64,000 bases of DNA, from contig CAVWLW010000033.1 of NCBI GenBank assembly GCA_963755715.1, positions 64,001-128,000 of the forward strand, given 5' to 3'. Numbering within the stretch: position 1 is the stretch's first letter; each line of letters begins with the position of its first letter. The position numbers and the translations under genes were made by a program. Source of the DNA: an uncultured delta proteobacterium. GTDB taxonomy: Bacteria > Desulfobacterota > Binatia > UBA9968. Positions 8,605-63,641 of the stretch are shown in pieces. The notes beneath the pieces are model-generated. The model was not told the origin of the DNA, did no database searches, and was given only the letters and a program-made list of their open reading frames with translations.

Positions 8605-8817
8605 ATAGAGGTATTAGCAGATTTCCGTGCGGATCACTAAGAGCGGCGCAATATTTGTGAGGGCATATCGGGAGTGAAAGCGGTTATGCCGCTGCGGCGA
8701 TCGACGCAATTTGTGCGGGGAGAATTTGTTTGCTGGAGGTCCTCGAGCCCGCGCCGTTTCCGGATGAATTCGCTCGCCGCGAAGCGGAGGAAAATTTCGT
8801 CTTGATAAGACGTCGCT

Positions 8818-9213
8818 CTAAAATTTCCGATTCGGGGTTGCTGTACGAACAAAGACGGTCATGTGCTCGGCGCTCACGATCTCCACCTCGGTACCGGCGA
8901 CGATCATCTGATCGGCGGGAAGCGCTCTGGCGCTCCAGAGCTCACCTTGGACTCGGACGAAACCCTTCGGTGACAAATCATCGTGCGCGAAACCCCGCGC
9001 GCCGACAAGCGCTTGCAGACCCGTTTTAACGTTCGTCTGGTAGGCTCGGTGTAAAAGCGGATAAAGCATCACGTCTTTCAACACCCAAGCAAAAAAACCA
9101 ACGACGCCGAGCCATGGCGGCAAAAATTCCCAGTGCAAGAGGGCGAGCAAAACCGCTGCTGCTATAAGCCAGCCGGGGATTTGAAATATTAAATAACGTT
9201 GCCAGGTCGACAT
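8818..9213 (-). CDS. NfeD family protein
   Basis: N-terminal TM segments followed by LVGARG...LSPKGFVRVQGELWSARA (OB-fold NfeD signature). Confidence 0.8.
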   Translation of the reverse strand: MSTWQRYLIFQIPGWLIAAAVLLALLHWEFLPPWLGVVGFFAWVLKDVMLYPLLHRAYQTNVKTGLQALVGARGFAHDDLSPKGFVRVQGELWSARALPADQMIVAGTEVEIVSAEHMTVFVRTATPNRKF

Positions 9214-9420
9214 CGATGGAGATTTTACGGATCGCGCGTCTACGAATCAACGGGTTTTCAGTTGATTAGAATCGCATGGATTGACATGATGACCGAGCGC
9301 CTTTTTCAAAGGGGGGCGAACAAAATCTCATTTCGGCCGCGTTTCTCCGGCATTTTTCTTGACGCTCGCGTGCGGTCTCGCTACTGTCACTGGACCCTTT
9401 GTCGAAAGGCTAATTCAGTC

Positions 9421-10152
9421 ATGGATGAGTTACTTAAGGATCTCGCGCCCACAGGAAGAGTACGAGTCGGCATCAATTATGGAAATCCCGTGCTCGCCAA
9501 GAAAGATCCCGCAAGCGGCGAGCTCCGCGGCGTGGCAGTCGATCTCGCGCGCGAGCTTGGCACGCGAATCCATGTTCCGGTCGAGCTCGTCGGCTACGAC
9601 TCGGCGGGAAAAATGTTCGAAGCGGTGAAAGCTGGAGCCTGGGATGTTGCGTTTCTTGCGATCGATCCCGGGCGCGCCGATGAGATCGATTTCACTGCTC
9701 CTTACGTAGAAATCGAAGGCACCTATCTCGTCCCGGCCGGTACGCCTTATCGGGTCGTCGGAGACGTCGATGAGCCCGACGTGCGCATCGGCGTATCCGC
9801 CAAGAGTGCTTATGATCTATTCTTGAGCCGCAGCATCCAACACGCGGAATTAATCCACGCATCGGGCCCCGATGCTGCATTCGCGTTACTCCTCGCCGGC
9901 AAGGTCGATGTGCTGGCCGGAGTCAGGCAACACCTCGTCGCCAATGCAGCGAAGATTCCGGGATCGCGCGTGTTGGACGATCGGTTCATGGCGATCCAGC
10001 AAGCGCTCGGCATTGTCAAAGGCCGCGTCGAAGGCGCCAAGTATTTGCGCGAATTTATTGAGGATGTGAAGGCATCAGGCTTGGTGAAGCGGGCCCTCGA
10101 AAAATCCGGCGTGAGCGGCGTGTCCATTGCGCCGGCGGCGCCGACCGAATAA
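9421..10152 (+). CDS. Polar amino-acid family ABC substrate-binding protein
   Basis: LAPTGRVRVGINYGNPVLA...AWDVAFLAIDPGRA; start moved to ATG 9421. Confidence 0.8.
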   Translation: MDELLKDLAPTGRVRVGINYGNPVLAKKDPASGELRGVAVDLARELGTRIHVPVELVGYDSAGKMFEAVKAGAWDVAFLAIDPGRADEIDFTAPYVEIEGTYLVPAGTPYRVVGDVDEPDVRIGVSAKSAYDLFLSRSIQHAELIHASGPDAAFALLLAGKVDVLAGVRQHLVANAAKIPGSRVLDDRFMAIQQALGIVKGRVEGAKYLREFIEDVKASGLVKRALEKSGVSGVSIAPAAPTE

Positions 10153-52236: not shown

Positions 52237-54577
52237 ATGGCTGACTATTCCGTCGTAGGGCAATCGGTTTATCGAACGGACGCCAATCCGAAAGTGACCG
52301 GGCGGGCGCTGCATGTCGGCAATATCGAGATGCCGGGCATGCTGCACGTCGCGGTTTTGCGGAGTCCGTATGCGCATGCGCGGATTACGCGCATCGAGAA
52401 ATCGAAAGCGGAAGCGCTGGATGGCGTGGCAGTCGTATTGACCGGCGCTGAGATCGCAAAGATGCCGGGCATCGATCCGCACTTCGGGCCGGCGTTTCGC
52501 GATCAGCCGATTCTCGCCGTGGAAAGAGTCTGCTACATCGGCGATCCCGTGGTGGCGGTGGCGGCGGTCGATCGGCGCACGGCGGAAGACGCGCTCCAGC
52601 TCGTCGAGGTCGATTACGAGGCATTGCCCGCGGTCGCACGATGTGCTCGAAGCGGCGAAAGCCGGGATCGCCGCTGGTGCATGAGCAGCATCGGCCGGCG
52701 AAGGCTTTCGCCGATCTCGCCCACGTTAAAGCCGGTCAGCAATCGAACGTCTGTTATCACTTCAAGCTGCGCACCGGCGACGTCGACAAGGCGTTTGCCG
52801 AAGCTGATCGAGTATTCGAAGACACGTTCAGCTCGCCGCCGGCGCAGCATGTGCCGATGGAGCCGCACGTGACGTTGGCTTATCTGGACGAGCACGAGCG
52901 CCTTAACATCTGGACCGCGAGCCAATCGCCTTCTTATGTCCGAACGGAGATTTCTGCGACTTTCGGTATTCCCATGAACCGGATTCGCGTGCGCGTGCCG
53001 TACATCGGCGGCGGCTACGGCGCCAAGCTCTACGCCAAGCTCGAACCGCTGGTGACGGTGCTGGCGCTGATCACGAAAAAGCCGGTGCGTTACGCGCTCA
53101 CACGCGAAGAAGAATTTTTGACAATCACCAAGCACAAAGTCGTTACGAAAATCAAAACGGCAATCAAAGACGGCGCGATCACGCGCGCGTAAATGCGAAG
53201 TCTATTGGGACACCGGCGCCTACGCGGAAATCGGCCCGCGCATCGGTCACAAATCCGGCTACACATCGGCGGGGCCGTATCGCATCCCCAACGTCTGGAT
53301 CGATTCCTACTGCGTGTATACGAACAAAGTGCCCGCGGGTGCGTTCCGCGGTTTTGGCGTGCCTCAAGTTATCTGGGCCTATGATTCGCAAACCGACATG
53401 ATGGCGCGCGCGCTCGGTGTCGACCCCGTGGAATTTCGTTTGAAGCCGATGTTGGATGAAGGCGAGCGCTTCGCCACAGGTACGGTCGTGCGATCGTTCG
53501 GCATCAAAGAAGCGATCCGCCAGGCGGCCCAGGCGATCGAGTGGTCGAAGCCGAAGACCGGCGCAAAACGGAACCAAACGCCGTGGCAAAGGCATCGCCG
53601 CAGGCGTAAAGGCAGTGCTGACACCGTCGATTTCGGGTGCCATCGTCATTCTCAACGCCGATGGCACGGCCAACGTGCTTAGCAGCACCGTGGAGATGGG
53701 GCAGGGATCGGAGACAACGATGGGACAGATCGTCGCCGAGGAATTGGGCATTGCACCTGATCGCGTCCACATCGTTCAGCCGGATACCGATGTTACGCCC
53801 TATGATACGATCACGGCCGGCAGCCGTTCGACTTACCATATGGGCAATGCCGTGCGCATGGCCGCTGGAAAGATCAAAACGGAATTGTGCGAGGTGGTGG
53901 CGTCAAAACTAGAGGTAGCTCCGGACGATTTGCTATTGCGCAATGGCCGTGTCGTGGTGCGCGGTATGGAAGAGCGCGGCATGGCGATCGGTGAAATATT
54001 TCTGGCCAAGTTCGGCAGTCTCGGCACCACGCTCGCCGCCGAGGCGGTTTGCCAACCGACGGCGGCGCACATGGATCCGGAAACCGGCCAGTCGGAAAAA
54101 TGCACGGAGTATTGGTTTCCGTCGGCCACCGCCGCGGAGGTCGAGGTCGACACGGAAACAGGACGAGTTAAGATTCTCCAGCTCTTCAGCGTCGGCGACA
54201 CGGGCACCGCGATCAATCCGCGCCACTGTGAGCAGCAGTTAGTCGGCGCCGCGGTGATGCATTTAGGGCTGACGATGTTCGAGGAGATGATCTTCGACGA
54301 GGGTCAACTCGTCAATGGCTCGCTGCTCGATTATCAGGTGGCTTCGTTTAAGGATATGCCGGAGTCGATTCGACCGATTGTCGTTCAAGTGCCGCATGAA
54401 GACGGCCCTTTCGGTGCAAAAGGAGTGGGCGAAACCGGCGCATTAACAGTTGCGCCGGCGATCGCCAACGCAATCGACGACGCGGTTGGCGTGCGCATTC
54501 GCGATTTGCCGATCACGCCGGAAAAAGTTTTGCGGGCGTTGCTAGAGCAAAAAGAAAATGCCAGTGAAGGCCTTTGA
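52237..54577 (+). CDS. Xanthine dehydrogenase family molybdopterin-binding large subunit (frameshifts near 52637, 53188, 53565)
   Basis: KVTGRA, LRSPYAHARI, QHVPMEPH, IGGGYGAK, GAFRGFGVPQ, EMGQGSET, GPFGAKGVGE. Confidence 0.88.
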
Positions 54578-54619: not shown

Positions 54620-55129
54620 TTACTGCCCCTTCGACGCGCCTTTTCTCATCGCGTCCATGTTGATGTTCGGCATGCCGGGCATCACGATATCGCCTGGCTT
54701 CTGTCCGGCTTTGCAGGGACCCAGCCATTTCGCTTCGATTACTGATGAGGATTCCTTCATCCCCGACATCGGCGGCTCATAGGTGCTCTTGATGTCGGCC
54801 TTATAGGCTGAGTCGAATTGGCCTGTGAAGACCGCGCGGGTTGTCGCGGTGCTGTTCTGCACTTTGCATACGGATTCGGCGACGATCTTGTCTCCTTCTT
54901 TGCGCATCTCATTCTTGCTGCACTGCGTTTTCTGATTTTCGCCCATCTCTTTTTTCATCAGGTCATCGGTTTTCTCGTCGACACACTGTTGCACCGCATG
55001 ACTGCCTTGGGTCTGCCCGCTCGAAATCTTGATCTCCCACAGGCCGGACTTGCGCTTGGGCGCATCGAAGGAAGCGGCGGCAGCAGCGCTGGCGGCAAAA
55101 AGGACGAGGAGCAGGGCGAAATATCTCAT
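54620..55129 (-). CDS. DUF3617 family secreted protein
   Basis: Signal peptide, PKRKSGLWEI, QQCVDEKTD, EAKWLGPCKAGQKPGDIVMP. Confidence 0.8.
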   Translation of the reverse strand: MRYFALLLVLFAASAAAAASFDAPKRKSGLWEIKISSGQTQGSHAVQQCVDEKTDDLMKKEMGENQKTQCSKNEMRKEGDKIVAESVCKVQNSTATTRAVFTGQFDSAYKADIKSTYEPPMSGMKESSSVIEAKWLGPCKAGQKPGDIVMPGMPNINMDAMRKGASKGQ

Positions 55130-55177
55130 GCTGCGATCCTTATAGGAGGAAGTTTTTCGATTGGCGCCGGACGTGAG

Positions 55178-56158
55178 TTAGATCGCCGCCGGCGAATCGA
55201 GTTCGAAGCCCAAATCCGAGATCATTTGATGGGCATCGGAGGCTTCTTGTCCCGGCGTCGTCAGGTAGCCGTTAACGAAGATCGAATTCGCCGGGTAGAG
55301 CGCCATCGGCTGCAGCGAGCGCAGGTTGATCTCTCTGCCGCCGGCGACGCGGATTTCTTTGCTCGGATTGACGAAACGAAAAAGGCAGAGAGTTTTCATG
55401 CAACGCTGCGGCGTGAGATGTTTTTTGTCCTCGAAGGGAGTTTTCGGGATTGAAGTGAGAAAATTGATCGGGATCGAATCGATGTCCATGGCGCGCAGCG
55501 ACAGTGCCAAGTCGATGATGTCCTCGTCGCTCTCGCCCATGCCGATGATGCCGCCGGAGCAGGTGCTGACGCCGGCCTGTTTGACGTTCTCAATGGTCGC
55601 GACGCGATCGTCATAGGTGTGCGTCGTGACAATTTCCGGATGGCGCGTGCGGCTGGTATTGAGGTTATGGTTGACCCGACCGACGCCGACGTCTTTGAGC
55701 CGGCGGATTTTTTCTTCGTTCATCAAGCCGAGCGAGCAGCAAATATTCATGCCGGTTTGAGCGCGGATCTCGCGCACGGCTTCAGCGATGTCGTCGATCT
55801 CTTTGTTCGTCGGGCCGCGGCCGCTGTTGACGATGCAGAACCGCACTGCGCCGGCGGCTTTGGCTTGCTTGGCATGTTCGACGAGTTTTTCTTTCGACAT
55901 GAAGGGATAGCGGTCGATGGGCGCTTCGGAGACCGAGGATTGAGAGCAGTAGTGGCAATCTTCCGGGCAAAGGCCGCTCTTGGCATTCTGCAACACGTGG
56001 ATTTGCACGCGTTTACCGTAATAGTGGCGTCGCACTTTGAATGCCGCGCTCACCAACTCGGGTAACTCCTCGTCCGTCGCGTCCAATACCGCTTTTAATT
56101 CATCTCGTTCGGGAATAATTCCTTGAAGCGCTTTGTCGGCCAACTGCTGAAAATCCAT
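55178..56158 (-). CDS. bioB: Biotin synthase
   Basis: NAKSGLCPEDCHYCSQS radical-SAM motif, NHNLNTS, CSGGIIGMGE, SIPINFL, IRVAGGRE, NSIFVNGYLTT. Confidence 0.95.
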   Translation of the reverse strand: MDFQQLADKALQGIIPERDELKAVLDATDEELPELVSAAFKVRRHYYGKRVQIHVLQNAKSGLCPEDCHYCSQSSVSEAPIDRYPFMSKEKLVEHAKQAKAAGAVRFCIVNSGRGPTNKEIDDIAEAVREIRAQTGMNICCSLGLMNEEKIRRLKDVGVGRVNHNLNTSRTRHPEIVTTHTYDDRVATIENVKQAGVSTCSGGIIGMGESDEDIIDLALSLRAMDIDSIPINFLTSIPKTPFEDKKHLTPQRCMKTLCLFRFVNPSKEIRVAGGREINLRSLQPMALYPANSIFVNGYLTTPGQEASDAHQMISDLGFELDSPAAI

Positions 56159-56183
56159 TCCTACCTCCGAAGTCAGACCGTTT

Positions 56184-56648
56184 TTAACATGCGCGGTCCG
56201 GCCTTGCAAATATCGCGGCGCGAGCGTGGAATTTCCCCCACGTGTACAAGAAAGCAGCCAGGACGAAATGGAAAAAAATCGGTATCGTGCCGCCGAACCA
56301 GCGCATTTCCGGGCGCAAGATCATGGTTATAACGTAGCGCAGCAGCATACTGCCCGCATAAATCGCGCTGAAGCTGATGAGAAATCTCGCCAAACGCATT
56401 CGCGTCTGCGCAAAAAATCCTTTGCCGCGCCAGACGTCGGAGACGATCTTGACCATACCGATTAACAGGACTACCTGAGTCGCCAGCAGAGTGGGATACG
56501 GAATGAGACCGGACGCCCACTGCTCCGTAGAAGGTAGCCAGCTGACCGAAAAAAATACCACAAGAGCTTGGCCCAAGACGCGCAGAAAGAAGAGCACGGT
56601 GAGAAAAGCGAGAACGGCGCCGTGCGCGCGAAATCGACCTCGCTTCAC
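56184..56648 (-). CDS. Hypothetical 4-TM membrane protein
   Basis: LFFLRVLGQALV..WLPSTEQWASGLIPYPTLL..RWFGGTIPIFFHFVLAAF; GTGA overlap with the GH3 stop. Confidence 0.75.
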   Translation of the reverse strand: MKRGRFRAHGAVLAFLTVLFFLRVLGQALVVFFSVSWLPSTEQWASGLIPYPTLLATQVVLLIGMVKIVSDVWRGKGFFAQTRMRLARFLISFSAIYAGSMLLRYVITMILRPEMRWFGGTIPIFFHFVLAAFLYTWGKFHARAAIFARPDRAC

Positions 56649-58318
56649 GGGAGCAATTCACTGGCCGTCTTTACGACAAACTGGATTTCGCTCGCCTCCT
56701 CAGGAGTAGCGCTCAGAAGCTGCGCCTTGAGTTGCACGTCGCGCGTTCCGGGCTGGAGAGCGGCATTGGCTTTGCGCTGGAACCAGCCCGGTTTCATCAC
56801 GCACAACAGAGGTGCGCCGAGCCGCCGCGACTCGCGTTTCTGCGCATATTCGACATTGAGCGCGCGCAGGGACGCGTCCAGTTCCTGCAGCAATTGCATG
56901 AGACGTTCTTGAGCCGGCATCGCACCGTCCAATTCCACGAAGAAAGAGTAAAGAGATTCTTCCGCATCGGCACAGGCGCGAAAGTGTTGAACCGCCATTC
57001 CCGCGGCGTTTTGCGCCTGTGCCATGGCCTGGATCACCTGGTTGACGTGAAGTTTCTCTCCAGTGATGTTGGTCACATCGCGGCCTTTGCGGACGAATTC
57101 AATCAACGGCGTTTGGTTATAAAAACCGGCGACGCGAACGACGTCATTGATATCGTAGCGGTAAAGACCGGCGGCCGTGGTGAGAACGAGATAATAACTC
57201 GCTCCTGCCTCGAGCTCAGCGCAGGTAAGGATCGTGGGCGCCGGGCTGTCAATTTCCGATTCGGGAATGAACTCATAGAAATTTTCATCGATAGCAAGAA
57301 TCCCGGCCGAGCCTGAGTCGGAAATCGGCAGCGTCATCTGCGCCTCGCTTGCCATATAGCCGAGATCACGCACCGGCGTCGTCTTGCCGAACCAGCGGGC
57401 GAATTCTTGCAGACGGACGCCGACGGTACCGCCCTTCCAACAACCGATGAGTTGCAGTCGCGGCCAATATTCTCTGGGGCGGAGCGACCCGTCGCTCTTG
57501 ATTAAAGATTCGAGTCTTCTCGCGCGCGCGGGGTTTTTCCTGAGACGGCCCGCGAGCGCCGCGCGCATTTCGGGCTGGAGGTTGCACCGCGCCGTGATGG
57601 TGCCGTCGCAAATGTCCTGGATAATTTCGTGTTTATTTCGATTGACGGTTTCAACCAGCTTCAGAATCGTGCTCGGGTTGGGCGTGCCGAGAAACGTAAT
57701 ATCGTGTTCCAGTGCCAAGCGCATGATGAGATAATACTTGGCTTCGAAGTCCTTCACTTCGGCGATCTCGTAGGGTGTTGCATAAGCGTTCTGAATCCAG
57801 CTCGGAGTGCTTTGATAGATCAATCCGGAAGCCGCGCCGAAAGGGATGCCGCCCGCCGTGCGCCCCTCGACGACGGGACTCACGACACCGAGCAGCTTGC
57901 CGCTAAAAAGATCCGGATGGTCGATCAACGCGCGGTAATACCACAGTCGGGTGAGCAGGCGATGATTTCTGCGCGTGGTCTCGGTGATGGGGATCAGTTT
58001 GGGCTGGCCGGTGCTGCCGCTGGTCAGGGTGAACATCAAAACCGGCGCTGCTGTCAACGCATGGGCCTCGCCGTTTTGCGCGCACTCGATGTACGGACGC
58101 AGACGCTCGTAGTCGCCGACGGAGACTTGCGCGCGATAATCGCTGAGAGAATGAATGGCCTCGAAGTGGTGATCGCGGCCGAAGCGCGTAGCGCGATTTC
58201 GCTTGATGAGATCGAAAAGCAGGTGATTTTGGATTTCTTGCGGCTTAGCCGTCAGGTCGTGCCATCGCGTCCACTGGCGACGCGTGAGAAACGCGGCGGC
58301 TTTTAGAAGGATGCCCAT
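56645..58318 (-). CDS. GH3 (auxin-responsive promoter) family acyl-adenylate-forming ligase
   Basis: TRFGRDHHF, TSGSTGQPKLIP, GYMASE, FYEFIPE, GLYRYDINDVV, TGEKL. Confidence 0.9.
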   Translation of the reverse strand: MGILLKAAAFLTRRQWTRWHDLTAKPQEIQNHLLFDLIKRNRATRFGRDHHFEAIHSLSDYRAQVSVGDYERLRPYIECAQNGEAHALTAAPVLMFTLTSGSTGQPKLIPITETTRRNHRLLTRLWYYRALIDHPDLFSGKLLGVVSPVVEGRTAGGIPFGAASGLIYQSTPSWIQNAYATPYEIAEVKDFEAKYYLIMRLALEHDITFLGTPNPSTILKLVETVNRNKHEIIQDICDGTITARCNLQPEMRAALAGRLRKNPARARRLESLIKSDGSLRPREYWPRLQLIGCWKGGTVGVRLQEFARWFGKTTPVRDLGYMASEAQMTLPISDSGSAGILAIDENFYEFIPESEIDSPAPTILTCAELEAGASYYLVLTTAAGLYRYDINDVVRVAGFYNQTPLIEFVRKGRDVTNITGEKLHVNQVIQAMAQAQNAAGMAVQHFRACADAEESLYSFFVELDGAMPAQERLMQLLQELDASLRALNVEYAQKRESRRLGAPLLCVMKPGWFQRKANAALQPGTRDVQLKAQLLSATPEEASEIQFVVKTASELLP

Positions 58319-58324
58319 TTCGCT

Positions 58325-60196
58325 CTATCCGCGCACTTCGTGCTTGACGGTTGCGAGACGTTCCAAGACGTCTTCCCTGACTGTGACGCTGAGGCCGCGC
58401 GTTTTCAAGAGCGGTGCGCGTCCGCCTAAACCGAAAGCGACGCTTTCGTATGTGAGATCCTCGGCGAGGAGCCAAGTGCCGAAGGAGCCTTCGGCGAATT
58501 CGAGCGCAGGCAAATACGCCGCAAAGGTTCGGCCTGCGGCCGAGAGGATACCGGTTTCGCCTACTTGCGCGCCGACTTGGATCTTGATGCCTGCTTCATG
58601 CGCGAGCTTGGCGATGGCCAGGCTGCCGGTGATGCCGCCGTTTTTTGACAGGCGGATATTGAAGTAATCGCAGGCGCCAAGCTCTATGAGCCGGCGCGCC
58701 TGTTCAAGCGTGACGAGCGACTCGTCGGCCATGACCGGGATTCCACTCTCAGCGCGTACGCGTTTCATTCCTTCCAGATCTTTGGCGGGCACCGGCTGTT
58801 CGATTGCTGCCAATTTGAATTGCTCGAGTCGTTGCAATTGTTCGATTGCTTCGTGAGCATTCCAAGCGCCGTTAGCGTCCGCGCGGAGTGCGACTTCGTC
58901 GCCGACCGCTTTGCGCACGGCGTCGAGTCGCGCTGCGTCGTCGGCGGTGCCGACTTTCACTTTGACCTGGTGTAATCCAAGCCGCGCCATGCGTTTGGCG
59001 AGAGCGGCGGCATCTTTCGGCTCATCGGCAGAGATCACGCCGCTGTACACGACTTCGAAACGGGCGGGAGGAAGCAAATCCGCCAGCGCGCAATGATCAA
59101 CGCGCAAGCTCCAATCGAGCAGGGCCAATTCGACGGCGCAAAAAGCTGCATTCCACGCGACGACGGTCGTTTCGCCGTTATCGCCGCGTGTCCAGTTCGG
59201 CATTAGCGCTTGCAGGTGTTCAAGAGTTTCCCAGCCTGGCGCGAAAGTTTGACGAAAAAGTTTTGGCGCCAGGTGGTCGCGAATACGCGCGACCATGGTT
59301 TCCGTCGTTTCTCCGGTAACGTAGGAGCGCGGCAGACTTTCGCCGAAACCGCTGCGGCCGTCGCTGCCGGTGACTTTAACGATCACCGCGTCGCTTTCTT
59401 CGCGGTTGTGCAGCGCATGGCGAAAAACTTGGTGGAATGGGATGCGCAATTGGTAGATGGTTAGAGACTCGATGCGTTGGGCTTGCGCCTTCGCTATTTT
59501 ACTTCGCGTGCGTTGCTTGGAGACCGGCGGAAAGTAGTGGCGCACGAAGAGGTTGTCGCCGAGAGTGAAATGCGCGATCTGGTCGAATAACGGATCGGGA
59601 ATCTCATGAAAGTTTAAATAATCCTGGATCACTGTCACGCCTTCCTCGGCGTGGCGGATATCGACTTCGGAATGAAGCTCAAACCAGAGCAGCGCCGCTT
59701 TGGGGATGGAATAGTGATTCGTCAAGGCTGTGGCAATTTCGCTCGAACAGCGCGACAGCATGAACTCGAAGCTCATGGTTTCCAGCAGGAGAGATAGGCA
59801 AAGCTCGCGCAAGGTCGCCACCGGCACTCGGGTGGCGCAGAAGATCGCCACGCGTTTGCGCGCGTCGGTGATCAGCTGATCGACTTCATTCTCGGGAAAT
59901 CCGATGCCTCGAACCAGCTCGACCAGCAGCGCTGAGTGAGGTTTTTCCTTCTCCGAACGGCCCATTTCCTCCAAGAGATTTTCTTTCAACAGCTCGGCGG
60001 CATTGGACGGAAGAGCGGCAAAGCACAGTGCCACGATATGCGCAGACAAATAATGCGTGCGAAAAACGTTGCGGATGAACTCGTGAGCGGCTTCGGTCGA
60101 GGCGTGACCGCAAGCGAGGCTTTGATATTCTCCGGAGTCGCGAAATTCGCGGGCCGCCTCGTTGAATGCGCGGGTAATTCGCTCGACGGAGATCAT
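58325..60196 (-). CDS. Fusion: heme-oxygenase-like di-iron (TenA/PqqC/CADD-like) domain + MLE-subgroup enolase domain
   Basis: N-terminal ENLLEEMG..PHSALL, SFEF, WFELHSEVDIRH; C-terminal GFGESLPRSYVTGET, KVKVG, DANGAW, EQP, DES, GAQVGET; start placed at MISVER. Confidence 0.8.
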   Translation of the reverse strand: MISVERITRAFNEAAREFRDSGEYQSLACGHASTEAAHEFIRNVFRTHYLSAHIVALCFAALPSNAAELLKENLLEEMGRSEKEKPHSALLVELVRGIGFPENEVDQLITDARKRVAIFCATRVPVATLRELCLSLLLETMSFEFMLSRCSSEIATALTNHYSIPKAALLWFELHSEVDIRHAEEGVTVIQDYLNFHEIPDPLFDQIAHFTLGDNLFVRHYFPPVSKQRTRSKIAKAQAQRIESLTIYQLRIPFHQVFRHALHNREESDAVIVKVTGSDGRSGFGESLPRSYVTGETTETMVARIRDHLAPKLFRQTFAPGWETLEHLQALMPNWTRGDNGETTVVAWNAAFCAVELALLDWSLRVDHCALADLLPPARFEVVYSGVISADEPKDAAALAKRMARLGLHQVKVKVGTADDAARLDAVRKAVGDEVALRADANGAWNAHEAIEQLQRLEQFKLAAIEQPVPAKDLEGMKRVRAESGIPVMADESLVTLEQARRLIELGACDYFNIRLSKNGGITGSLAIAKLAHEAGIKIQVGAQVGETGILSAAGRTFAAYLPALEFAEGSFGTWLLAEDLTYESVAFGLGGRAPLLKTRGLSVTVREDVLERLATVKHEVRG

Positions 60197-60240
60197 TTCG
60201 ACCCTTTCGTAGCTGTTGCGCGCTGAATAAAGAACGTAGC

Positions 60241-63200
60241 TCACGCGCCCGGCGTTTGAGTTTTTTCCTGTGCCATCGCTTTGATTTTTTTTAAGTCGAC
60301 TTTTCCAGTGCCAAGTAAGGGAAGCGCATCGATGGCGTAGAGATTTTCCCGTTTGGGAATCCAAAGCTTGGGTAGCTCGGACTGGTTCAGTTTGTTCCAA
60401 AGATCCTCTTTGCTGACGCCGTTCTGAGCGTAGAACGCGATGAGTCTCTCGCCCCGTTGCTCGTCGGGAAGGGCGGTGACGGCGGAGGCGATGCCGCCCA
60501 AGACCTCGTTGATGACCTCTTCGACTTTCATGTGCGGCACCATTTCGCCGCCGATCTTGCTAAAGCGCGAAAGCCGGTCGGTGATGCGAATGAAACCGTC
60601 TTCGTCGATGGCAGCAACATCGCCGGTGATATACCAGCCGTGGCGCATCACTTGTTCCGTGAGGTTGGGCTGGTTTAGATAGCCGAGCATCACGTTCGGG
60701 CCTTTGATGAGCAACAGCCCTTCTTGGCCGGGGCCGAGAGATTGCTCGGTCTCCGGATCGATGATCTTCGCGGCGACGCCGGGGATTGGGTGGCCGACCG
60801 TGCCGGGTTTGTGGCTGATCTGACTTTCTTTGCCGTCGACGACATCCGGCGTATTTACGGCGACCACCGGCGCGAGCTCGGTGCAGCCGTAGCCTTCCAG
60901 GATAGTGGATCCGAATCTTTCTTGATACGCGTTGGCAATTTGCCCGCGCAGCTTTTCCGCGCCGGCGATTAAATATCGCAGCGATGCGAATTGCTCTCTC
61001 GTGCAACGTCTTAAATAGCCGGCGTAAAAAGTCGGCGTGCTGATGAGCAATGTAACTTGATATTTCTGTACGGTTTCACCGATCGTTTTAGCGTCGGTGG
61101 GATTGGGATGATAGACGACGCCGAATCCGGCAAGCAGCGGCAGCCAAAGTGTGCCGGTAAAACCGAAGGAATGAAACAATGGCAATACGCCCATGATGCG
61201 ATCGCTAGCGGTGAACTGGATCACTTGGCCGATGCCTTCGACATTGGCCGCAATGTTGCGGTGCGAGAGCATGACGCCTTTGGGCGCGCCGGTGCTGCCG
61301 CTGGAAAAAATCACGGTGGCGAGATCGTCGGGCTTCTGGGCTTTGACGTAGCGACGGGTCAGCAAAAATGGGGGCAAGAGGAAAGCTTTCATCGTCGCGC
61401 CGATTTTTTTGATCGGCGTAAAAGTTTTGCGAATCTCTTCGAGAAAAACCATGCCCGCCATTTCTTTCACGCCGGCTTTGGCGAGGAAGACCCGGGAAGT
61501 GATGATGGTTTTGATGGCGCACTGCTCAACCGATGCGTCCATCGCTTCGCTGCCGGCGGTAAAATTCAAGTTGACCGGAATTTTTCCGGCGAGGAGAAGT
61601 GCGATGTTGGTCAGCGCCCCGCCGACGGACGCCGGCAGAATCACTCCCACCATCGACTCTGCAACACAATGTTTTCGCGCCCAGTTCGAGAGCAGCAGGC
61701 TGCCGATCAAGCTCTTACCGTAACTCAATTCGGTGCCGGTCGTGTCGGCCATGCAGAAAGAGAACCAGCGCCGTTTCGCCATCCGAATAAAACTGGCGTG
61801 AAGAAGGGCGGCGCTGCTTTCGCGGCGGCCAAGCGCGTTGCTTTCGAGCTCAAGGACGGCATTGCGCACTTCCTGCACGGTTGCATCGGAGCGAAGCGGC
61901 GAGCCAAAAGAGACGGTCACAGGATAGGAAAAATTTTTCGGCTGTTTCCAGAAAAATCGCCCGCTCTTGAAGCTGAAGATGCTGCCCCAAAGCTGATCGA
62001 GGTGAACCGGCACGATGGGAATATTCGTGCCTTCGACGATTTTTTCGAAGCCGCGTTTAAACGGCAGCAAGTGACCGACGCGGCTGATCGCGCCTTCGGC
62101 GAAGATGCAGACGATATGGCCCTTGTCCAGCTCGTTGCGCGCATGTTTGAGCGACTGAACGATATCGCGTCGGTTGGTTGCCGACACCGGGATCGAGTGC
62201 ATGAGGCGGAAAAACCAGTGCAAAGATTTGAGGTCGTAATAATCGCGATGCAACATGAAGCGCACGAAACGAGCCGTTGCGCCGCCGATCATGAGGGCGT
62301 CGACGAAGGAAACGTGATTCGACACGAGCAACGCGGGACCCCGCGCCGGCAGATTCTCGGCGCCGATGACCGTGATTCGATAAATCGTGTGCGTGACCAG
62401 CCAAAGAATGAACCGGACAAAATAGTCGGGGAGCAGGTAAAGAATCACCGCCGTGCCGGCCAAAGTGACCAGCCCAGTCAGCAAAATGATCGAATCCGGT
62501 GAAAAGTGCAGCGGCGTCTTCAAAATCCAGTGAATTGCCGCGGCGAGAAAGATGCCGATCGTGTTCATGAAATTGTTGGTCGCGATCAGTTGGCCTTTTT
62601 CCTCCTTGCCGCTGCGCTGCTGGAGTAATGCGTTCAGCGGCACGGCGAACAGGCCGGCGGAAAATCCAAGCAGGACCAGCGACATGCCCGTGAGAAGATA
62701 GGACGGCGCGGAGAGCGCGACCAAACCCAGACCAACGCCCATCGCAACGGAGCCCAGGGGCACCAAGCCGAGTTCGATATGGTCGCCCGAAAGGCGGCCC
62801 GCAGCGAGGCTTCCCGCGCCAATGCCGACCGCCAAAAACGTCCCAAGCAGCCCGATGTGAAACTCGTCCAGTTGCAAAAGTTCTTTGCCAAAAAAAGTAG
62901 ATTGATCTGCACGAGCGCGCCGAGAAACCAAAAAAAGGAAATCCCGATCACCGTCAGCCAAAGCGGGCGCTCGGCGCGTAAACGACGCAGGCCGTCGACG
63001 ACCTCACCGAAAGGATTGAGTCGTATCAGCTTGGCGGCGCCGGATGCGGGAACTCGAGTGATGCGCAAACTTGTCAGGCTGCCCACGACGGCGACGGCGA
63101 TCATCATGATCCCGATTACCGGTAAGTTGTGTTTCCACAGCGCAAAGATCGCGCCGCCCACGGAGGTGCCGAGAATGATCGCCATAAAGGTGCTCATCTC

Positions 63201-63641
63201 GAGCAGGCCATTGCCGCGGGACAACTCTTTTTCAGGAAGCATCTCCGGCAAAATGCCGTACTTGGCCGGACTAAAGAAGGTGGCATGGAGTCCCATGAGA
63301 AAGACGCCGGCAAGCATGGCCTGAATATGGCCGGTGAAAAATGCTCCCAGGGCCAAAACCATGATAATGATCTCGAACATTTTGACCGCCACTAAGATGG
63401 TGCGTTTGCTGTACACGTCGGCCAGATGACCCGCATAACCGGAAAAAAGCGCCGATGGCAAAATGAACAGAAAAGCGATCAGCTCGACGTAGTTATCGGC
63501 GCCGTTTGTGGCCAAATCCAGGGCGATAAACGACACCACGATTTTTAAAAAATTGTCGTTGAACGCGCCGAGGAATTGCGTGCAGAAAAAAGCAAAAAAC
63601 CCCGGCTGCCTGAGCGTATCGCTATACTTACCGTTAGCCAT
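60241..63641 (-). CDS. aas: Aas-type acyl-ACP:phospholipid acyltransferase/acyl-ACP synthetase with N-terminal LplT-like MFS domain (frameshift near 62890)
   Basis: TQFLGAFNDN and FSPAKYGILPE (MFS), SNHVSFVD and FAEG (PlsC), FSSGSTGAPKG, EGYGCTE, WYITGD, SKIGGEMV (AMP-binding); the break is at a T7 run. Confidence 0.9.

Follow-up and report, generated by a model that had tools for sequence, protein, structure and literature searches.

A GH3 ligase and an oxidase-enolase fusion in an accessory cassette of uncultured soil Binatia, with a predicted role in building a modified fatty-acyl amino acid lipid

The nearest characterised system to the locus analysed here is the GH3-dependent OlsH/OlsI ornithine-lipid pathway of Singulisphaera acidiphila (PMC12493201, 2025; review PMC12971839, 2026). 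OlsH has been shown to use ATP to couple a free fatty acid to ornithine, giving N-acyl ornithine (PMC12493201), and the authors consider that, beyond the planctomycetes, homologues of OlsH may take amino acids other than ornithine (PMC12493201; PMC12971839). In the text of PMC12493201 and PMC12971839, the words enolase, racemase and epimerase have zero occurrences each. As in that pathway, a bacterial GH3-family enzyme would be the first committed enzyme of our locus, and paralogous clusters of its relatives hold alpha/beta-hydrolases (the OlsI fold) and an OlsE-like hydroxylase. The differences are that our GH3 is no OlsH equivalog, that neither OlsI nor OlsG is encoded in the window (the whole stretch of 64,000 nucleotides analysed), and that the partners of the GH3 are a fusion of a heme-oxygenase-like diiron oxidase (HDO) to an enolase-superfamily domain and a four-helix membrane protein. 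We give about even odds (roughly 0.5) to the reading that the locus contains a three-gene accessory cassette, inserted between lplT-aas and bioB, whose predicted product is an N-acyl amino acid with a modified head group, either an aminolipid or a lipoamino acid. An earlier, sequence-only reading of the same DNA knew of no characterised pathway with this gene set; that holds for the set as a whole, but the OlsH/OlsI pathway (PMC12493201, 2025) is the obvious comparator.

The locus consists of six minus-strand genes in one orientation, namely aas, the HDO::enolase fusion, GH3, the membrane protein, bioB and DUF3617 (Table 1), bordered upstream by a divergent plus-strand Cu-oxidase_4 gene before aas and downstream by a convergent plus-strand MoCoBD_2 gene (53456-54577) after DUF3617. 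Homologue-fitting starts were used throughout: the fusion ORF, listed as 58325-60400, starts at 60196 to give 623 aa, and the bioB ORF, listed as 55178-56209, starts at the ATG at 56158. The resulting gaps, from aas to DUF3617, are 44, 6, -4, 25 and 48 bp, and the GH3 stop and the membrane-protein start share bases in a GTGA overlap read directly from the sequence. This layout agrees with the sequence-only reading, as do the gene identities, which match the Pfam and NCBIfam assignments. That reading saw no internal terminator; a terminator scan likewise left all five gaps free of terminator-like sites, with totals not above chance either way (11 sites versus 14.5 +/- 4.2 in shuffles).

Table 1. 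Features of the six-gene locus (positions within the window).
Feature	Position	Strand	Basis
HDO::enolase fusion gene, 623 aa, cassette core	58325..60196	-	Haem_oxygenas_2, MR_MLE_C, MR_MLE_N (Pfam)
HDO (heme-oxygenase-like diiron) domain, residues 1-222	59531..60196	-	model, alignment A3, CADD alignment
MLE-subgroup enolase-superfamily domain, residues 238-623	58328..59485	-	closest solved chains, catalytic residues
Arg515 codon, end of barrel strand 6	58652..58654	-	alignment to 1jpm, clade members, model
GH3-family acyl-acid amido synthetase, 557 aa, cassette core	56645..58318	-	Pfam GH3, GH3_M, GH3_C
Four-helix membrane protein, 154 aa, unnamed family	56184..56648	-	homologues, AF2 model, loci
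lplT-aas downstream frame: MFS end, acyltransferase, AMP-binding; neighbour, non-core	60241..62961	-	PRK08633, Pfam
lplT-aas upstream frame (MFS / LplT part)	62634..63641	-	PRK08633, LplT
7-T run, aas frame break	62890..62896	-	sequence, X1 contigs
bioB, biotin synthase; neighbour, non-core	55178..56158	-	TIGR00433
DUF3617 protein, hydrophobic N-terminus; neighbour, non-core	54620..55129	-	Pfam DUF3617, 52.2 bits

The gene previously called aas belongs to that family but requires correction: it is a three-domain LplT(MFS)-acyltransferase-acyl-ACP-synthetase gene, frameshifted in assembly GCA_963755715.1. Its downstream frame matches NCBIfam PRK08633 at profile positions 245-1145 (1173.6 bits), together with Pfam Acyltransferase, AMP-binding and MFS_1, and its upstream frame matches profile positions 5-266 and LplT (94.6 bits). 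The frame breaks within a minus-strand run of seven T. Since contigs of run X1 carry one extra base behind 62889 (13.1 of 24.8 depth, 2 contigs) and an eighth T restores a single frame, reading ...INLLFFGKELLQLDEF..., either an assembly error or strain variation probably accounts for the break. The bioB product is a full equivalog match (TIGR00433, 406 bits versus a cut-off of 225) and the only BioB above the cut-off in a profile search of the genome; it must therefore serve biotin synthesis. DUF3617 follows bioB in only part of the genus.

The HDO::enolase, GH3 and membrane-protein genes form a cassette that is gained and lost as a unit in uncultured soil Binatia. The HDO::enolase gene, or its split form, adjoins GH3 in 17 of 18 fetched loci, the eighteenth (L077) stopping at a contig end. 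Within a 123-genome sample of the order, the fusion was found at identities of at least 61% in 28 genomes and the orthologous GH3 at identities of at least 58% in 30; the two occur together in 26 of the 28 fusion genomes, with contig ends or remnants making up the exceptions, and all these co-occurrence counts overstate independence, the sampled genomes of one family being kin. In another family of the class (G263), HDO and enolase are separate genes in the order membrane protein-HDO-enolase-GH3.

The sequence-only reading had joined all six genes into one fatty-acyl tailoring pathway. Spelled out, such a pathway would have Aas activating or attaching the acyl chain, BioB modifying that chain by radical-SAM chemistry and DUF3617 dealing with the product. 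Co-orientation, short gaps, the overlap and the terminator-free gaps are consistent with this, as are the recurrence within the genus of the order aas-fusion-GH3-membrane protein-bioB(-DUF3617) and a single 162-nt RNA-library contig (12 differences, 1 gap) that spans the aas/fusion gap; the acyltransferase domain of Aas, which we take to be of the PlsC type, could moreover O-acylate a lyso-aminolipid. Synteny, however, largely refutes it. Three loci of one genus (L069, L070, L082) carry the cassette with neither aas nor bioB within about 9 kb, and in L068 aas adjoins bioB while the cassette lies 4.3 kb away. Conversely, in a 99% complete genome of the same genus as ours (G373) bioB follows aas after 184 bp and the cassette is absent, and in another (G376, 98% complete) the cassette has decayed in place, leaving between aas and bioB only fragments of the fusion (residues 119-189), GH3 (309-551) and the membrane protein (85-154). 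The distant variants of the GH3-enolase pair in G263, G344, G308 and G164 have neither bioB nor DUF3617 next to them, and bioB is the sole, full equivalog match noted above. Thus, HDO::enolase, GH3 and, mostly, the membrane protein travel together as anticipated, but aas, bioB and DUF3617 are not co-conserved with them, and a six-gene pathway appears very improbable. Most likely these three genes simply lie next to the cassette, with which they may share a transcript.

The membrane protein has no Pfam or NCBIfam match. It has 646 homologues and, in a separate count, 923 representative clusters at E<=0.001, and its AF2 model (pLDDT 93.4) consists of four long helices with no Foldseek match in the PDB at E<=0.001. 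It follows GH3 in 13 of the 17 loci with enough flank, precedes HDO in G263, and is missing from two cassette loci (L068, L073). In 69 of 80 loci, which come partly from the same contigs as the 18 cassette loci, members of the family stand without GH3, HDO or enolase nearby; neighbours there include FAD_binding_4 oxidases (20 of 55 loci scanned), DUF6962 (11) and FMO-like enzymes (10). Because the family occurs mostly outside the cassette and two cassette loci lack it, its role in the cassette may be generic or incidental.

That the membrane protein clearly works in other contexts too would fit a reading in which adjacency means little, the fusion enzyme and GH3 being merely co-operonic and acting on unrelated substrates. 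Against this, GH3 and the fusion are lost together, and the pairing of GH3 with this enolase clade reaches deeper than the cassette. Paralogous pairs at 35-44% identity are adjacent in six of six further loci, in either gene order, and in another family of the phylum (G164) the two genes lie about 1.1 kb apart and divergent, so that the pairing spans three families of the order plus G263 and G164. We therefore regard non-functional adjacency as extremely improbable.

The surroundings of these pairs are of a lipid type, although all such neighbours sit in the paralogous clusters and none in the cluster analysed here. In G308 the pair is preceded by an FA_hydroxylase gene whose only NCBIfam match is the ornithine-lipid hydroxylase OlsE (179.6 bits, cut-off 475). 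Hydrolase_4 alpha/beta-hydrolases lie beside the pair in G344, G388 and G164, with patatin also in G344 and G388. Enolases of the clade that lack a GH3 stand behind a Lip_A_acyltrans gene in all ten loci where that ORF was scanned, and FadL/TodX lies beside seven of these ten. These neighbourhoods in relatives back the earlier prediction that an acid is coupled to an amino acid and that lipid is involved.

The cassette GH3, the only copy in the genome, matches Pfam GH3, GH3_M and GH3_C (232.2, 84.8 and 62 bits), and its nucleotide-motif residues are invariant (alignment A4). Among the bacterial GH3 models of NCBIfam it matches only OlsH. Its assignment as an OlsH equivalog was rejected at 138.1 bits versus a cut-off of 620, and because of this distance neither the acid nor the amino acid substrate can be read from the protein. 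The PDB relatives are plant enzymes (JAR1, GH3.5/3.6/3.8, GH3.12; E 4.6e-35 and weaker), which share the three-domain architecture and nucleotide motifs but conjugate hormones, have no operon context and are distant in sequence.

The fusion protein matches MR_MLE_C (179.4 bits), MR_MLE_N (30.3) and, above the cut-off, Haem_oxygenas_2 (PF14518, 56.8), and was modelled by AF2 with a pLDDT of 80.6. It has at least 120 full-length homologues, 74-89% identical among the matches listed and mostly of 623 aa; a literature search yielded no description of an HDO joined in one protein to an enolase-superfamily domain. The heme-oxygenase-like diiron oxidases and oxygenases include CADD as well as UndA, BesC and SznF. 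The HDO domain is all-helical with seven or more helices, and E77, H87, E144, H175, D179 and H182, each at least 90% conserved (alignment A3), align with six His/carboxylate positions of the all-alpha PF14518 enzyme CADD (1rcw/8va9) that in chain 1rcw we take to be metal ligands. Stand-alone forms of 224-235 aa occur at 49-59% identity. No solved structure is closer than CADD, deposited as "4-aminobenzoate synthase" (E 0.046), which hints, weakly, at aromatic over lipid chemistry. By inference, the HDO could be a functional analogue of OlsE: both are O2-dependent diiron enzymes, of which OlsE tailors an aminolipid head group, and the OlsE-like gene of G308 holds, beside its GH3-enolase pair, the position that HDO has in the cassette. 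OlsE differs in being an integral-membrane FA_hydroxylase-family enzyme, with a fold unrelated to HDO.

The CADD resemblance bears on a reading in which the product is a small water-soluble conjugate, cofactor-related or a signal molecule: HDO would make or modify an aromatic or short acid, GH3 would add an amino acid such as glutamate, and the enolase domain would act on the glutamyl end. A CADD-family model is also the sole HDO-type NCBIfam match (26.3 bits), the PDB relatives of GH3 include the plant enzyme GH3.12, a "4-substituted benzoates-glutamate ligase" (E 6.1e-25), the enolase domain is closest in sequence to an L-Ala-D/L-Glu epimerase (1jpm, E 8.5e-39), and a class-IV aminotransferase, from a Pfam family that presumably also contains aminodeoxychorismate lyase, adjoins the cassette in L082 and lies near it in L068. 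However, both CADD matches are marginal, the NCBIfam cut-off being 200; plant IAA and jasmonate GH3s outscore GH3.12, and the one bacterial model matched is the fatty-acid-using OlsH; the further partners of GH3-enolase in relatives are all of a lipid-related kind (OlsE-like hydroxylase, alpha/beta-hydrolases, patatin, lipid-A-type acyltransferase, FadL); and a dedicated membrane protein goes with the cassette. We consider a water-soluble conjugate unlikely and prefer an N-acyl amino acid lipid.

The enolase domain shares its fold with MLE-subgroup racemases and epimerases (2p88, 2zc8, 1jpm/1tkk, 3q45, 3jva; Z 42-46 over about 350-365 residues), the closest solved chain being the N-succinyl Arg/Lys racemase 2p88 (Z 46.2, rmsd 1.9, 365 aligned), with the dipeptide epimerase 3q45 and the N-acylamino acid racemase 2zc8 among the other closest. 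It retains the KxK motif (K412, K414) and the three metal ligands (D440, E466, D491), and misses all NCBIfam equivalog cut-offs (DgcA, 122 of 400; NF041118, L-Ala-D/L-Glu epimerase, 109 of 500). It departs from these enzymes in its fusion to a diiron oxidase and the lipid-type neighbourhoods of its clade, and in one catalytic residue. The second base of MLE-subgroup racemases is the strand-6 lysine; here Arg515, where model strand E511-515 terminates, takes its place ("FNIRLSK" aligned to "NIKLMK" of 1jpm). Arginine occupies this site in 18 of 18 aligned members of the clade and in all seven GH3-paired or HDO-paired enolases, whereas lysine is kept in the five best PDB relatives and in two MLE paralogues of the same genome (L002, L003). 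A genuine N-acyl amino acid racemase, using Arg515 or another residue as second base and leading to an N-acyl-D-amino acid lipid, would suit the closest structures, and such racemases act on exactly the type of compound that a GH3 enzyme makes. The clade-wide replacement nevertheless argues against a plain racemase, which we hold to be decidedly unlikely, and it makes doubtful the earlier suggestion that the cluster isomerises an acyl substrate.

For the preferred lipid product, GH3 would activate a free fatty acid by adenylation and attach the acyl chain to an amino acid through its alpha-amino group, with neither ACP nor CoA, in the manner of OlsH, a characterised relative. Mg2+ held by the three ligands of the enolase domain would then bind the alpha-carboxylate left free on the N-acyl amino acid, and K414 would abstract the alpha-proton; because the second base is replaced by Arg515, the likely outcome would be not the usual two-base racemisation but a one-base reaction, for example beta-elimination or dehydration. 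This molecule would also be the target of the fused HDO, whose O2-dependent oxidation would most simply be a hydroxylation that either makes or follows the enolase substrate, and the membrane protein would keep the enzymes at the membrane or hand them lipid substrate or product. This scheme is supported by the nearest solved relatives of the enolase domain, which act on N-acylated amino acids, the GH3 product type, and on dipeptides, and by the intact and conserved catalytic motifs of the cassette enzymes. An OlsI-like alpha/beta-hydrolase is absent from the cassette and none scores above the cut-off in the genome, so a complete acyloxyacyl lipid is unaccounted for. An OlsB-like gene lies elsewhere in the genome (PF13444, 111 bits), and the cassette is thus not needed for ordinary aminolipids; it is predicted to provide an undescribed route to a modified fatty-acyl amino acid lipid.

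The six genes between 54620 and 63641 (all coordinates are those of the window) are separated by gaps of 44, 6, −4, 25 and 48 bp, the overlap being a GTGA read directly in the sequence. The co-orientation, spacing and GTGA overlap described in the sequence-only reading were confirmed by open reading frames, by Pfam and NCBIfam matches and by direct reading. A divergent Cu-oxidase_4 gene flanks the block on one side and a convergent molybdopterin-enzyme gene on the other, and a promoter and terminator scan of the region yielded site counts that do not exceed those of shuffled sequences. The genome to which the window belongs is assembled into 76 contigs totalling 7.4 Mb, with a completeness of 93.6%. 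Three libraries that are recorded as metatranscriptomic yield contigs with 90–100% matches to pieces of bioB and of the GH3, fusion and aas genes, some of them with 0 differences (for example, 57803–57977 and 58428–58578), and one 162-nt contig spans the gap between aas and the fusion; such contigs, from libraries in which DNA may be present, cannot demonstrate a transcript and are not counted here as support for co-transcription.

Features of the six-gene block (window coordinates)
Feature	Coordinates	Strand	Basis of assignment
DUF3617 gene	54620–55129	minus	Pfam/NCBIfam
bioB, biotin synthase	55178–56158	minus	TIGR00433, 406 bits (cut-off 225)
154-aa protein, no family	56184–56648	minus	no Pfam/NCBIfam match
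GH3-family ligase	56645–58318	minus	three GH3 domains, all present
HDO::enolase fusion, 623 aa	58325–60196	minus	"iron-containing redox enzyme" PF14518 plus MLE-type enolase-superfamily domain
LplT–acyltransferase–acyl-ACP-synthetase gene (lplT-aas), three domains	60241–63641	minus	PRK08633

The aas gene is read in two frames, which switch inside a run of seven T residues (62890–62896, minus strand) and match PRK08633 over profile positions 5–266 (202.4 bits) and 245–1145 (1173.6 bits), the cut-off being 1221. Contigs of the public run X1 carry one extra base at this T7 run, at 13.1 of 24.8 depth (about half), which would bring the frames into register; the break probably reflects either a fault of the assembly or variation between strains. 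The fusion or the GH3 gene is in pieces or contains stops in several few-contig assemblies of relatives (G377–G384), which resembles a homopolymer error of this sort.

Comparison with related genomes resolves the block into a cassette of two to three genes (the fusion, the GH3 ligase and the 154-aa membrane protein) and an aas–bioB neighbourhood within which it has been gained, moved and lost. Full-length relatives of the fusion are numerous, at 74–89% identity. In an order-level sample of 123 genomes that includes the window's own, the fusion is present at ≥61% identity in 28 genomes (again counting the window's own; within the genus, 18 of the 30 remaining genomes carry it), and an orthologous GH3 at ≥58% identity is present in 30. 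Both genes occur in 26 of the 28 fusion genomes, the exceptions being contig ends or remnants. GH3 adjoins the fusion, or a split HDO and enolase, or the enolase alone, in 17 of 18 fetched loci (the eighteenth is cut by a contig end), and the 154-aa protein lies 3′ of GH3 in 13 of these loci, before HDO in one (G263) and is absent from three; these counts are not independent, the genomes being kin and the fetched loci and membrane-protein loci coming partly from the same contigs.

The flanking genes part from the cassette in several ways. Three loci (L069, L070 and L082) contain the cassette with neither aas nor bioB within about 9 kb; at a fourth (L068) aas adjoins bioB and the cassette is 4.3 kb off; and in G373, a genome of the same genus, 184 bp separate aas from the bioB gene that comes next. 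In G376 a decayed cassette lies between intact aas and bioB genes (locus L099, G376:C2:664000-683900, positions 8744–9987), where only fusion residues 119–189, GH3 residues 309–551 (with a stop) and membrane-protein residues 85–154 remain. It is from these arrangements, namely cassettes without aas or bioB nearby, aas–bioB adjacency without the cassette, and decay in place, that gain, movement and loss are concluded. The proposal that aas, the fusion, GH3, the membrane protein, bioB and DUF3617 constitute one co-conserved fatty-acyl tailoring pathway is therefore not supported, and is rejected on synteny and on the single-copy status of bioB, the sole BioB above cut-off in the window's genome. 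A tailoring radical-SAM role for bioB is rejected as well: beyond its equivalog score, the protein has the Pfam Radical_SAM and BATS domains of a full BioB, and it is the only one that the genome has. A class-IV aminotransferase gene directly follows the cassette in one genome of the sister genus (L082:5588-6574) and lies near it in another (L068:5776-6768); it might encode a D-amino acid transaminase or an aminodeoxychorismate-lyase-type enzyme.

The membrane protein has a much wider distribution. It is modelled confidently as a four-helix bundle (AF2 pLDDT 93.4); a Foldseek search against the PDB gave no match at E ≤ 0.001 (best 2.6), and the ESM Atlas returned only unnamed clusters. Residues R23, Q27, W44, S46, Y97, R104 and P123 are invariant and H127 nearly so. 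An alignment of related loci (A1) had no conserved stretch, and a narrower one (A2) was taken in its place. The family amounts to 923 representative clusters, none annotated. GH3, HDO and enolase genes are all missing from the covered flanks of 69 of 80 membrane-protein loci, and the protein is rejected as a cross-phylum marker of the pathway. Its usual neighbours are FAD_binding_4 oxidases of about 500 aa (20 of 55 loci), DUF6962 (11) and FMO-like proteins (10). Some proteins are fusions of the membrane protein to Peptidase_S15 hydrolases or to DUF6962, and among 17 longer forms scanned seven have Peptidase_S15 and one more has PepX_C alone. Seven loci whose records bear the title Nitrospira, Nitrospiraceae or "uncultured bacterium" have an LplT-Aas gene close to the membrane protein. 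The family extends over many phyla: according to record titles, loci L114–L183 belong to Nitrospira, Acidobacteriota, Gemmatimonadota, Planctomycetes and Verrucomicrobia, and to Chloroflexi-type and Cyanobacteria-type MAGs. In one Binatia MAG without the cassette (L116:6396-7931), a FAD_binding_4 oxidase is encoded downstream of aas and immediately upstream of the membrane-protein gene and bioB, occupying the slot held by the fusion and GH3 in the window; one soluble oxidase partner may have been replaced by another there. The window's own genome also contains a second membrane-protein fragment (G000:C50:99326-99514; residues 83–145, 54% identity) with one TGA inside.

The HDO domain of the fusion (residues 1–222) is all-helical in the AF2 model and matches PF14518 over residues 39–194 (56.8 bits against 28.9). 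Three His and three carboxylates, E77, H87, E144, H175, D179 and H182, show conservation of at least 90% in A3, the alignment used for HDO, and align with positions 81, 88, 142, 174, 178 and 181 of CADD, which we take to be the CADD metal ligands. CADD (1rcw) is the closest solved protein, although at an E-value of only 0.046; the CADD family model TIGR04305 gives 26.3 bits against a cut-off of 200, and the ESM Atlas places the domain only in generic "iron-containing redox enzyme" clusters. This weak likeness to CADD, a point against the lipid reading, would allow a small aromatic-acid conjugate, in place of a lipid, as the product of the cassette, an alternative that we consider improbable.

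The enolase domain (residues 238–623) comprises MR_MLE_N and MR_MLE_C, that is, a capping domain and a TIM-barrel, and by these matches falls in the MLE subgroup. Its nearest solved relatives are the N-succinyl Arg/Lys racemase 2p88 (Z 46.2), dipeptide epimerases and N-acylamino acid racemase, enzymes that act on N-acylated amino acids. Strand 2 has its KxK motif (K412/K414), and strands 3, 4 and 5 supply the metal ligands D440, E466 and D491, with all of these residues at the ends of modelled strands. The strand-6 catalytic position, however, is occupied by Arg515 rather than Lys, and the AF2 model (pLDDT 80.6) places this residue at the end of strand 6. All 18 members of the clade that were aligned have Arg here, as do 7 of 7 enolases whose genes neighbour GH3, whether HDO is present or not, whereas the five best PDB relatives and two MLE paralogues from the same genome (L002 and L003) have Lys, presumably the second catalytic base as in YkfB, NSAR and MLE. 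Judged by these residues, the domain is a member of the superfamily that departs from one defining feature of the MLE subgroup. A plain racemase, as the solved relatives might suggest, is a weakened reading, since Arg515 counts against it. The tree places the HDO-associated enolases in a single supported group (95/87) within the Arg clade, separate from the ordinary MLE paralogues that the same genome encodes (98/98); rows L032 and L035 of this tree bear the label "LipA_pair" by assumption, their neighbours being unscanned.

The pairing of GH3 with this enolase clade extends to loci where HDO is absent. Paralogous GH3–enolase pairs, at 35–44% identity, are adjacent in six of six further loci, with either gene first; in G164 the two genes are divergent and about 1.1 kb apart. 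GH3 itself is rare, occurring in 6 of 301 genomes of the phylum sample. In G308 the pair lies 3′ of an FA_hydroxylase gene whose sole NCBIfam match is the ornithine-lipid hydroxylase OlsE (179.6 bits, cut-off 475); Hydrolase_4 alpha/beta-hydrolases accompany the pair in G344, G388 and G164, and patatin does so in the first two of these genomes. Clade enolases without GH3 come immediately after a Lip_A_acyltrans gene at all 10 loci for which that open reading frame was scanned, with FadL/TodX beside seven of these GH3-less loci and patatin beside one. Arg-clade enolases consistently have lipid genes around them. Stand-alone enolases of the same phylum (L010–L026) overlap or abut a Lip_A_acyltrans (LpxL-like) gene, often next to FadL/TodX, and the coupling of Arg-clade enolases to Lip_A_acyltrans is an unexplained enolase–lipid association in its own right. 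A search of the open-access literature found nothing in print on a GH3–enolase pairing or an HDO–enolase fusion, no paper combining HDO with muconate-lactonizing or enolase terms, and no relevant paper on GH3 in Binatia (one unrelated soil paper aside); the term "enolase superfamily" was absent from the papers that it turned up. Unusual here are the HDO::enolase architecture, not found in the searchable literature, and a clade that keeps the metal site and KxK with Arg in the place of the second base.

The N-terminal, central and C-terminal domains of the GH3 ligase score 232.2, 84.8 and 62 bits (cut-offs 23.6). The residues of its three nucleotide-binding motifs (T99, S100, G101, G104 and K107; G320, S324 and E325; Y386, R387, Y388, N391 and D392) do not vary across 14 sequences, the most distant at 34% identity, and Y321 is conserved in at least 90%. 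The best solved relatives are plant GH3s, and the only bacterial model with a match is OlsH (NF052613, 138.1 bits against a cut-off of 620; 107–131 bits for GH3 paralogues in relatives). In the study of the Singulisphaera acidiphila ornithine-lipid pathway (PMC12493201), OlsH has the three nucleotide-binding motifs and converts free fatty acid, ornithine and ATP to N-acyl ornithine, a second acyl chain being added by OlsI, an alpha/beta-hydrolase; bacterial GH3 enzymes are counted there in thousands, with OlsH the only one characterised. The authors anticipate that homologues elsewhere will act on different amino acids (PMC12493201; PMC12971839) and that further members of the family will produce other N-acyl amino acids (PMC12493201); an enolase, racemase or epimerase is named in neither of the two papers. 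None of the six genes of the window encodes an OlsI-type alpha/beta-hydrolase O-acyltransferase, and the best NF052614 (OlsI) match in the genome has 44 bits against a cut-off of 385. Because both the equivalog score and the OlsI partner are wanting, the cassette is not placed in the OlsH/OlsI system; alpha/beta-hydrolases do, in contrast, flank the paralogous GH3–enolase pairs of G344, G388 and G164. By analogy, the cassette would work like the OlsH branch of aminolipid synthesis, yet without being an OlsH/OlsI member. Another part of the window's genome (G000:C34:2257-2565; L194) encodes an N-acyltransferase domain of the OlsB type (PF13444, 111 bits), and the organism, judging from this domain, probably also has a conventional aminolipid route.

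Our main reading, to which we give a probability of roughly 0.5, is that the cassette makes a modified N-acyl amino acid or aminolipid; any single chemical step is proposed with much less confidence. GH3 would adenylate a free fatty acid and then amidate an amino acid with it. The enolase domain may bind the free alpha-carboxylate of the resulting N-acyl amino acid, with K414 taking the alpha-proton; Arg515 replaces the second base, so that a one-base outcome such as beta-elimination would be expected and not racemisation. The fused HDO domain could oxidise the same molecule with O2, and the membrane protein might localise the enzymes or the lipid substrate. Against the main reading stand the lack of an OlsI-type enzyme, both in the window and, above cut-off, in the genome as a whole, the OlsB-like gene elsewhere in the genome, and the fact that the lipid-type partners are those of paralogous clusters and not of the window's cassette. 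A bolder version, which we hold only tentatively and think rather doubtful, is that the Arg-for-Lys enolase clade works on membrane lipids and that in Binatia it became fused to an HDO diiron oxidase and coupled to an OlsH-like GH3; together these enzymes would yield aminolipids of a new class, their amino-acid head group first being oxidised and afterwards dehydrated, or rearranged in another way, at the alpha/beta carbons, with the four-helix membrane protein as docking or substrate-delivery subunit.

The cassette is a credible, widely conserved and uncharacterised pathway with two unusual enzymological features. The locus and its relatives provide a concrete second bacterial GH3 case, with unusual partners. 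Should the aminolipid prediction fail, the synteny still corrects the six-gene reading and gives annotators grounds to treat the aas–bioB neighbourhood as coincidental. Were the bolder version true, the tailoring of lipid head groups would have its first case of enolase-superfamily chemistry, and bacterial aminolipid biosynthesis would gain a fourth branch, one independent of a carrier. Should the aminolipid prediction hold, it would give a substrate class to an unassigned enolase clade, widen HDO chemistry, offer a first handle on the membrane-protein family, and add a new type of aminolipid in Binatia, widespread uncultured soil bacteria.
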